A stretch of DNA of 64,000 bases from a virus (IMGVR_UViG_3300031555_001542:32001-96000); one strand, 5' to 3'. Numbered from the stretch's first letter, positions 55,465 through 64,000 are shown. Made by a program: numbers and translations. Notes: generated by a model from the letters alone, not told the origin.

Positions 55465-58400
55465 ATGGCTAAAGAAGTAAATATTGATAGTCTTGCCGAC
55501 AAGATTGCTGACAGATTGCTGGCCGCAAAACAGCAAGCTCGTGAGGCAGGTGAAGATGTTGGAGAGGAATTTGCTAAAGGTGTTGTGCAAGGTATTCAAA
55601 AACATTCAAAAGATTTTAAAACAGAGACTACAAAACAGTTTGAAGAATTGCAAAAAATAACAAAAAGGTTCAAATCAAAACAATCAGTTTCTACGGCAGA
55701 TTGGAATAAAGCTTTTGAGCTTTCTAAAGAGTTAATGAAAAGCGAAAGGTATGCTAAGAATGTTGAGGAGATTCTTGGTGATGTTAGGGCAACATTTAGT
55801 GGTATCGGTGAAGTATCTGGAATTAAAAACATTGTTAAAGAATTGGATAAAGCCAGTGATAGATTAGAGTCAGTGTCTTGGAGCCAGGCTGGTATGTATT
55901 TTAAAAGCAGGAAGAAGCCAGCTGTTGAACAACCAAAAACAGAAACTCCTGTAGTACAAGCAGATCCTGCACCTGTTGTGAAGGTGGAAGAAAAGAAACA
56001 AAAAGCTATTCAAGAAACTACTGCAGACTTACATGATCAAAAAAATGCGGTTGAAGATGCATCTAAGGCACAAGAAAAATATAACCAAAGAATGTCTGAA
56101 ATTAAAGACAAATATAGCGCAGATATACAAGAACAGAAGCAACGTATTTCAAATCAAGAGGCTTGGCTTAAATATCTAAATGGTTCTTTGGATGAATCAA
56201 AATTTAAAACAACTGGTAAAAAAGCGGCGACAGATCAATTGCGTTCACTTACAAACTATATGGTCAATGGTCGTCGTAATAATTATGCAAATGACCCTGG
56301 ACAATATCCAAAAGAAATGGCCGAAGTTGCCTGGATGCGTGGATATCAAGAGGCAGAAAGACAGGGTGTTGCAGACAGTGTTCTAAGAAGATTTGATACA
56401 GATGCAAGATATGATTTTGATGCAAATTTAAAAAAATTACAAGACGAATATGATATGCGCAAAAAGATTATGGATGCTGCATATGAAGAACTTAAACGTT
56501 TATATTTGGAAAGAGATAAAGAAGCTTTTGCCGCATTTACAGATAATCTAATGCCAGATGGTCCTCAGTCTGATGAGGAAAACAGAATTCTATCCGAGAT
56601 TACAGAGCAAGTTGCTAAAAAAACATTAAGTTATACTGAGGCAAAAGCAAGCCTTGAGAAGTCTATTATAACTTTGCGTAATATGGCATCTTCTGAGGCA
56701 AAAGTTAATCTTCAAAATTTAGTTAATGATTTAAAGAAGACATATGATGCTGAAACTTTTGATAAAGTTTTTGGTGCAGATTTAAATATGTTCGATTGTT
56801 TTGATAAAATTGACGATGCTGGTGCAAAAGAATTGTATGATATGCTCATTGAAAGCAATAAAACATATCAAGCAAGTCTTGTTAAAACTATAGATGTCCA
56901 AAAAGAGTTCAATAAACAAATGCAAGATGGAAATATACTTTATCATGCAGGCGACTTAAGCAATCCATCTAAAACTCAAAAAACATATCCTCTTGGTCAT
57001 GTTCGTCCAAGTAAGAGTAGTGGTATATTTAATGGATTTACTGGTCTATATACCACCGAAGATGTGGATGGGTTCTGGGGCAATGAATGGTCTGGTGCAC
57101 CTATTAGTACGATTGACGCATCTCAATATAAGCTATTTAATGCAAGAACAGACGAGCTTGCAACAAAAGCAAAAGAATTCTTTGATAGTTTAAACGGAAC
57201 AATTTATGGATATATTGAAGATTTTTCTACTGGAGAAATCAAAAAAGCAACTGATGTTAAAAGTATTGATGAATTGTGGACAGATTTCCAAGAAGTGTTT
57301 AAGAATACTAATATGACGTTCGAGAAGTTCTCAGAGTTTATCAAAAAAGCACAAAGTCTTGTGTTTGGCAAGAATTTCGACTTCGTAGAGGGACTTCCAG
57401 ATTTAGATGAGGGAGTTGTAAAAACTGGAGAGAAATCTGCACTACAAGGAGTGTCAAAAGAAGTCTTTAATTTAGATAGTTTCCAAACTCAACTATTAAA
57501 GATGCTTGGTTTTGAAGGTATTGATCTTCGTGGAACTAAGCATAATGGTACTTATACTGGCGGTACAGTTATATTTGATGTTAAGCCAGAAAGTATAAAG
57601 ACCACAAATGAAAAATGGTCTGATGTTATGGCTAGTCATGGATATGAGATTGATGAAGATGATTTAGCTCGTGAAGAAAAGCGTAGACAATTGGCATTTG
57701 ATACCGCAAATGCGTATAGTCAGCAAGCAGATTCTGCAAAAGAAGTTGCGGCTGCACAAAAATCTGACTACTATGAAATGTCTCATAAAGAAGCAACTGA
57801 TTATATTTTTGCCAATTACGATAAAGATTTGTGGGATAGATGGTTCTTGCGTGGCGAAGATGACGCACGATCTGAGATTGCTAAAAAACTAGAAAACGAT
57901 GCAAAGTTAAAAAATGCCGCACTTAATCAGATGTGGCATAATTATAAAGCACAAACAGAATCTGATATATCATATGACGACTTTTTAAATTCTAAGATTC
58001 CTGTATATAGAGGCGAGCGTGCAATTGATCTTTTTGGCAATATTGGAGAGTCAATTACTAAAGATGCAGCGTCTTTTTCTCTAGATAAGAGAATTGCGAA
58101 AGATTTTGCTGGCGCTTTGGATAGTAGAATAGGTGCAGTATTAGAAACATATATCTCACCAAAAGATACTCTCGGAATGCCTCGTCCTAAGTATGAAACA
58201 GAAAGTAATGCAGAGACAGAAGTTCTGGTTCCAATGAATCGAATTGCTGATTCTCCAGAGTACTTAAAATTTAAGCAAAAACTAAAAGAAAAACAAGATA
58301 TACATTCATCTGGAGAAACTTCTGAAGATGTAGAAAAAACAATTACTTCTTATGAAGAACTATGTGGAGTTGTTGCTAGATACAACGAGTTAGTTAAAAA

Positions 58401-64000: not shown

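Follow-up and report, generated by a model that had tools for sequence, protein, structure and literature searches.

Tape measure proteins (TMPs) fill the tail tube of a phage with the C-terminus at the tip and are expelled into the host envelope at infection. A gene in a virus contig of IMG/VR (IMGVR_UViG_3300031555_001542; 110,013 bp) raises the question of what else such a protein may bring along, since its product carries some 2,100-2,200 amino acids (aa) ahead of the tape measure core. We analysed positions 32001-96000 of this contig (64,000 nucleotides (nt), hereafter the window), in which the gene begins at 55465. Three modules with predicted enzyme folds, designated B, C and E, were found in the N-terminal extension. 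The explanation that we favour, with a probability of roughly 55% in our analysis, is that these modules are effector enzymes which the TMP delivers into the host.

The start codon is the ATG at 55465, which GGTGA precedes by 8 nt; like all of its parts described below, the frame lies on the + strand. No stop occurs within the window (55465..64000, aa 1-2845), and this part has Pfam and PHROG matches to TMPs; the stop was found in the contig at G000:C1:101768, 5,768 nt past the window, giving 4,767 aa in total. Only two Pfam domains are present in the whole protein, i.e., the tape measure core PhageMin_Tail (PF10145; aa 2216-2425, 62110..62739; 71.5 bits against a curated cut-off of 33.2) and PG_binding_1 at aa 4573-4631. 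PHROG TMP profiles align with the query only from ~aa 1990 (PHROG 4211, E = 2.4e-71), and a conserved VKEIDLAMTELKKV motif is located at nt 62002-62043. An earlier, sequence-only reading had proposed a TMP gene starting at 55465 with its core at ~62000. Translation bears out the gene, and the placement of the core is right because the Pfam core lies at aa 2216-2425 and the PHROG alignments begin only at ~aa 1990. The same reading had the open reading frame (ORF) as missing from the gene track; ORFs lacking a 3' end are readily lost by gene callers. A tblastn search with the TMP matched the core alone (aa 1965-2604), and among 50,697 phage records megablast had no hit to the gene.

A long frame of this kind could be an assembly or annotation artefact in which separate genes are fused; the source contig is metagenomic, and split versions of the gene occur in relatives. 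However, 14.3 kb run uninterrupted in a genome of 35% GC, and collinear full-length relatives of 4,285, 4,932 and 5,055 aa are found in independent assemblies, so that we give this explanation next to no chance. The protein is a single 4,767-aa TMP of an SPbeta-like siphophage from the gut, whose host is probably of the Clostridia type.

Predicted enzyme modules ahead of the core

From N- to C-terminus the protein consists of a cap (aa 1-215), a variable cassette (~aa 215-1400), a helical pre-core, the core, membrane-type segments and a C-terminal part with a peptidoglycan-binding end. The variable cassette holds the three predicted enzyme modules on helical linkers. A phmmer search with aa 470-1440 against 1.8 billion representatives returned 154 matches that fell on three separate stretches, corresponding to B (~aa 475-765), C (~aa 770-935) and E (~aa 1047-1400); the same segment had no phmmer match in the PDB. 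When the sequence was searched against Pfam as eight sub-segments, with E values of up to 10 allowed, no credible match was obtained for any of the three modules, nor for the GIPADSLYHELSGLFPSLFP segment described below. Two stretches, aa 470-970 and aa 1040-1900, were folded with AlphaFold2 on homologue alignments (A7, A8) built from single-domain DNA slices cut out of the relatives' contigs, with a mean predicted local distance difference test (pLDDT) of 81.2 and 70.8, respectively. MAFFT runs in which the query spanned several domains and the giant relatives were left uncut superimposed the three modules, and these alignments were discarded. The sequence-only reading had described an N-terminal extension of ~2200 aa with enzyme-like domains, at least three of them globular and separated by helical spacers. 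The models agree with this: the extension could have folded as plain coiled coil lacking any enzyme fold, and AlphaFold2 instead returned three or more enzyme-type folds, in which residues of catalytic type are conserved.

Domain C (aa 772-947, 57778..58305) was modelled as an alpha/beta fold in which the strands that carry R849, S870-x-S872 and E917-x-E919 are those expected for the R-S-E order typical of one class of ADP-ribosyltransferases (ARTs). In the alignment of 33 homologues, Y848 and R849 are invariant (33/33), G850 is nearly so, and the two glutamates are present in 31/33 and 30/33. The family profile matched PDB entry 2kxi at E = 0.045 over the region from S-x-S to E-x-E; we take this entry to be the ART NarE, its title in the PDB table reading only "Uncharacterized protein". 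Furthermore, the homologous domain of one relative (P0038) passes the Pfam cut-off for DRAT (34.2 bits vs 25), and one family member matches PF01129 at E = 0.0076. Domain C of the query itself has no match to the Pfam ART families ART, ADPrib_exo_Tox, DRAT and ART-PolyVal, even at E = 10. Comparison of the C profile with SpvB by hhalign was not significant; the alignment paired YRG with YRG and GE-x-E with GEAE. On the model and the alignment, domain C has the ART fold, and we predict with good confidence that it is an R-S-E ART.

The domain C family (window 57742-58374; P0052-P0152) numbers more than 100 proteins, of which many stand alone with a length of 200-280 aa. Its members share a helical N-terminal subdomain (GWFRNADSxYK ... 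RNAxLN) besides the YRG, S-x-S and E-x-E motifs, and no Pfam model covers the family.

Domain B (aa 484-739, 56914..57681) was modelled as an alpha/beta fold with a helical insert of ~120 residues. A search of this model against 48,161 chains gave members of the ART superfamily as the best matches (diphtheria-toxin homologues, MbcT, ParT and a domain of the cyanophage A4 pre-ejectosome), and the matches in BFVD include "PolyVal ADP-ribosyltransferase" as well as MuF-fused and polyvalent proteins. In the alignment of 21 sequences, H494 and Y529, both on strands, are present in 21/21 and E684 in 18/21; together they form a candidate H-Y-E triad, with E684 assigned as the catalytic glutamate by position alone. 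Some members of the B family lack the H or the Y residue (L072, L027). The motifs YHAG and GLYTTED resemble the NAD-binding motifs YHGT and GFYSTD of diphtheria toxin. The domain B profile found only helical noise in the PDB, and scans for domain B in viral contigs, JGI metagenomes and species genomes yielded no relative. Judged by its model, domain B is a candidate ART of the diphtheria-toxin/PARP-like (H-Y-E) type.

The A4 domain resembling domain B comprises residues 1418-1617 of chain B in PDB 9k3a, an ejection protein of a cyanopodophage; in the searched passages of the A4 paper, "ADP-ribosylation" has 0 occurrences. An ART-like domain may be a feature common to ejected proteins of unrelated phages.

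Domain E (aa 1121-1360, 58825..59544) was modelled at pLDDT 85-95, and its predicted alpha/beta fold is the one characteristic of phosphothreonine lyases, as in HopA1, the lanthipeptide lyases and OspF/SpvC. K1252, Y1254 and K1285 are invariant in the alignment (16/16), and H1309 is present in 14/16. Aligned by eye, K104-F-H106 ... K136 of SpvC has its counterpart in the strand Y-K-V-Y, the helix after it and the strand bearing K1285; the phosphate-binding lysine (K104) and the catalytic lysine (K136) would then be kept as K1252 and K1285, with SpvC-like spacing and strand-helix-strand register, and H1309 is away from the position of H106. The domain E profile retrieved only helical noise from the PDB and no sequence link to known lyases. 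In fact, there is no sequence-level similarity between domain E and OspF/SpvC, the lyases of class III/IV lanthipeptide synthetases (LxmY, CuvL, PneKC) or HopA1; moreover, those enzymes are type III effectors or parts of synthetases for ribosomally synthesized and post-translationally modified peptides, whereas domain E resides in a phage TMP. A search for stand-alone E domains gave two proteins only.

The modules are embedded in helical sequence. The cap (aa 1-215, 55465..56109) is common to relatives whatever their cargo, residues 1-210 being matched at 35-72% in P0003-7, P0011, P0012, P0020, P0041 and P0046 (BLASTP). It is followed by a recurrent helical module (aa 221-346, 56125..56502; BLASTP map), and an Atlas look-up of aa 215-365 gave neighbours that are all TMP-like and helical. 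Downstream of domain E, aa 1400-1800 (59662..60864) were modelled as an all-helical spacer (pLDDT 35-90) lacking an enzyme fold. The GIPADSLYHELSGLFPSLFP segment lies in this low-confidence stretch, which is conserved in relatives whatever their cargo. The segment had been noted near 60430 and is indeed present at nt 60436-60495 (aa 1658-1677); as a further domain it did not stand, being modelled as a helix-loop-helix at pLDDT 53-67. A small four-stranded beta-sheet (aa 1810-1862, 60892..61050; pLDDT ~80) lies between the spacer and the core.

Past the core, a hydropathy scan revealed two hydrophobic, membrane-type segments (aa 2513-2531 and 2725-2750, 63001..63714). The C-terminal 2,000 aa (G000:C1 ~95000-101768; L002 8000-14768) are conserved among the relatives. 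This part contains a region with a GELGPE-type motif (~aa 3800-3900) and a Gly/Ser-rich linker as well as the PG_binding_1 domain; Pfam detected no hydrolase domain in it.

Module exchange among related tape measures

The three modules are found again in ~50 giant TMP-like proteins, at varying positions and in varying combinations, and PhageMin_Tail was found in 12 of the 18 giant relatives tested. According to BLASTP, the N-terminal 210 aa and the pre-core (~aa 1350-2200) are common to the relatives, and the three modules come, go and move between these two. Domain swapping among the N-termini, which the sequence-only reading had proposed to look for, is thus what the comparison shows. The distance from the start codon to the core ranges from ~260 to 3,758 aa across ~110 related frames. 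The cultured Enterocloster phage PMBT24 has, behind the RuvC gene that also precedes the query TMP, a plain 1,508-aa TMP that starts at the core and has no extension; it aligns with the query from ~aa 2088.

Pfam searches of the extensions of 24 relatives gave PBECR5 in one of them (L021), DRAT in P0038 and otherwise nothing. PBECR5 is a nuclease of polyvalent proteins and is located, inside a 2,700-aa frame, in the same region as the cassette of the query. DRAT had not been found in the records of ten relatives and was later located in P0038. By sequence comparison, most of the cargo in these extensions is uncatalogued.

In many relatives the TMP gene is split into two frames (L086-L090, L014, L015, L018, L020 and others). 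Often the split falls within PhageMin_Tail, ~100-140 aa from the start of the core, and in some cases it precedes the core. The inserts are 0.27-1.2 kb long and may hold ORFs of the GIY-YIG, NUMOD3 or DUF723 type. These splits look like an invasion of the most conserved site by introns or homing endonucleases; Rfam detected no intron at the two split sites searched.

The relatives come from gut metagenomes and metagenome-assembled genomes (MAGs), mostly of Clostridia. Related phage contigs (L092-L135) were also binned in MAGs of Clostridia, Bacteroidota, Treponema and Gastranaerophilales. This scatter over phyla is most likely due to mis-binning of phage contigs, and the host can therefore not be read from the MAG titles.

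Proposed delivery through the tail and its precedents

What the sequence and the models show is the gene with its domain architecture, the folds, the conserved catalytic-type residues and the exchange of modules between relatives; that the extension is incorporated in the virion and translocated into the cell, and that its domains are active on host targets, we infer. In the proposed course of events, the C-terminal part would exit first at infection and engage the wall, the hydrophobic segments past the core would insert in the membrane, and the N-terminal cassette would exit last, just ahead of the DNA, into the cytoplasm. There, both ARTs would modify proteins or nucleic acids of the host at the expense of NAD+, and phosphorylated host proteins would be the substrate of the lyase domain. 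Their action would precede any phage gene expression and would serve host takeover or the disarming of defence. The order of cargo, core, membrane segments, C-terminal part and peptidoglycan-binding domain fits a C-terminus-first exit with anchoring in the wall and membrane, the cargo coming last with the DNA. The cytoplasm is proposed as the site of action because the NAD+ required by ARTs and the phosphoproteins required by phospho-lyases are cytoplasmic. The same consideration speaks against an action of the cargo in the envelope or outside the cell, e.g., in modifying wall or membrane components for penetration. Such a role would agree with the muralytic nature of the TMP-embedded enzymes known so far and with the peptidoglycan-binding domain of the query; however, the cargo and the wall-binding C-terminus are on opposite sides of the membrane segments, and we regard it as very improbable.

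Delivery of enzymes into the cytoplasm by a TMP has a precedent. In gp96 of Thermus phage P23-45, a TMP of 5,002 aa, the N-terminus is a virion RNA polymerase that works inside the host; the protein is present at full length in virions, and its polymerase is on phage DNA five minutes into infection (bioRxiv 10.1101/2022.12.01.518664). For gp96, the course of events set out above has been proposed and in part demonstrated. The query (4,767 aa) is likewise a giant TMP with predicted N-terminal enzymes, membrane segments and wall-directed domains following each other in one chain, and for both proteins extrusion through the tail and action in the host before phage gene expression are proposed. 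The cargo differs, being a single two-barrel RNA polymerase in gp96 and three unrelated, predicted protein-modifying modules in the query. A general Pfam scan gave no RNA polymerase family in the query, with no comparison aimed at the gp96 polymerase and with aa 1-470 not folded. Furthermore, the cassette-like exchange of modules is a feature of the query family, the phage lineage and host are others, and presence in the virion and activity have been shown for gp96, whereas the query is known from sequence and models.

Several observations weigh against delivery of active enzymes by the query. Some of them concern the enzymes as such. B, C and E of the query have no sequence match in Pfam, PHROG or the PDB, and comparison of the domain E profile with SpvC by hhalign was, as that of C with SpvB, not significant. 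Where enzymes of the OspF/SpvC type have a histidine as general acid (H106 in SpvC), domain E has, by eye, the invariant tyrosine Y1254 (16/16), and its lyase chemistry is for that reason not assured. One might therefore regard the domains as structural relics, i.e., as inactive folds that act as length spacers, plugs or lumen fillers. The tail length is set by the length of the TMP, so that selection for length could favour any insert, and the loss of H or Y in some B-family members as well as the exchange of the acid histidine in domain E would suit such a role. However, divergent homologues show little or no variation at the catalytic-type residues, R and E-x-E are kept in more than 100 stand-alone C-type proteins, and the modules move between proteins as discrete units. 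Besides, helical repeats would make a simpler length spacer. We consider relics improbable.

The other observations concern the way through the tail. Three copies of three folded 20-30 kDa domains must fit in a lumen of ~4 nm or travel unfolded; for gp96, an extended "caterpillar" arrangement has been proposed by the authors (bioRxiv 10.1101/2022.12.01.518664). No processing peptidase was detected, and in the relatives with split genes the cargo may be made as a protein of its own. Real enzymes that are not delivered with the virion would be compatible with these points: the N-terminal region could be cleaved off at or before tail assembly, or be a separate product, and act late or help in assembly. 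Lambda gpH and other TMPs are generally known to be processed, the cargo part and the C-terminal TMP part are in separate frames in many relatives, and folded domains are a poor fit for the tail lumen. On the other hand, the conserved cap and pre-core flank the cassette in all relatives, which suggests that the whole chain is built into one structure; gp96 is full-length in virions; and host-modifying enzymes that act late would gain nothing from fusion to a TMP. We hold a late or cleaved product to be unlikely, albeit worth keeping in mind, and prefer delivery of the modules with the tape measure.

A bolder version of the delivery proposal, which we regard as conceivable and rather doubtful, is that the region between cap and pre-core is a recombining effector cassette, i.e., a tail-lumen counterpart of polymorphic toxins that swaps the enzymes injected ahead of the genome. 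These would include the first phage-borne OspF-like phospho-Ser/Thr lyase, irreversibly erasing host kinase signalling (e.g., of Stk2-type abortive-infection kinases), and two ARTs of different classes.

The sequence-only reading had suggested an undescribed system. This does not hold for enzyme delivery by a TMP, in view of gp96, nor for injected ARTs; new are the type of cargo and its variability in the manner of a cassette. Phage proteins of the polyvalent, injected kind that contain ARTs, linked to MuF, portal or head proteins, have been described (Iyer et al. 2017, PMC5512222). That paper never mentions tape measures ("tape" has 0 occurrences), and in the passages searched the phosphothreonine-lyase fold is not among the domains. 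The likeness to the query lies in several unrelated enzymatic domains, ARTs included, in one very large virion-associated chain that is predicted to be injected with the DNA. Polyvalent proteins have at least two unrelated enzymatic domains; in the query, two types of ART and a lyase fold are predicted on a TMP. A further link is PBECR5, which was defined by Iyer et al. and is present in L021, and the BFVD neighbours include PolyVal ART and LPD proteins. In contrast to the polyvalent proteins, the query lacks their signature domains (LPDs, MPTase-PolyVal, ART-PolyVal, PBECR) according to Pfam.

By its description, T4 Alt is similar to domain C as an R-S-E type ART that is delivered at infection to modify host proteins. 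However, Alt is a separate, head-packaged protein, whereas the putative ART of the query is an internal domain of a TMP and is paired with a diphtheria-toxin-like one. TMPs of the SPbeta and PMBT24 types and muralytic TMPs (TM4, T5 Pb2) share with the query the PhageMin_Tail core, the gene order RuvC-small ORF-TMP and C-terminal wall-directed domains; in contrast, they start at the core or a few hundred residues before it, and their embedded enzymes target peptidoglycan rather than the cytoplasm. In effectors of contractile injection systems (Tme, Sle1; PMC11126660, PMC13277306), a TMP-like coiled coil also carries exchangeable domains that are ejected from a tail-like tube. These are the cargo of tail-like particles of Actinobacteria with a C-terminal functional domain, whereas the query is a phage TMP with N-terminal cargo. 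Our literature search found no report of ARTs or of a phosphothreonine-lyase fold in a tape measure. The delivery logic is the same as for gp96, and the cargo class is new and exchangeable in a large family of gut phages.

If this is true, the single experimental case of the P23-45 TMP-RNA polymerase would become a general strategy in which the TMP, which alone among the proteins is sure to reach the envelope before the DNA does, is a carrier of exchangeable host-modifying enzymes. The three predicted enzyme families have no Pfam match and were found here mainly in phage proteins, one being a large stand-alone ART family and another a rare lyase-fold family. They would be a testable source of anti-defence or takeover functions for the first minute of infection in abundant gut phages, and they raise the physical question of how folded 20-30 kDa domains pass a tail tube.

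Gene neighbourhood

The TMP gene is part of a tail module that is kept in the relatives. Directly upstream, a RuvC-like resolvase gene (54355-54858, + strand) and a 175-aa ORF (54920-55447, + strand), which may encode a tail assembly chaperone, are found in the same order in relatives. The adjacency of RuvC and TMP genes is also shared between the query phage and PMBT24. Downstream of the TMP gene, distal tail and tail-tip genes follow, i.e., a 409-aa Dit-like ORF (a weak match, E = 5e-4) and the gene for a minor tail protein of 1,305+ aa (E = 2e-37). Further upstream, inside the tail block, are an endolysin-like gene with a transglycosylase-type C-terminal part (51180-52661) and a holin-like gene (53944-54264). 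Finally, a 1,907-aa ORF matching PHROG 14959/24896, which carry no annotation, belongs to the late block and precedes the lysis genes (window 44817-50540).

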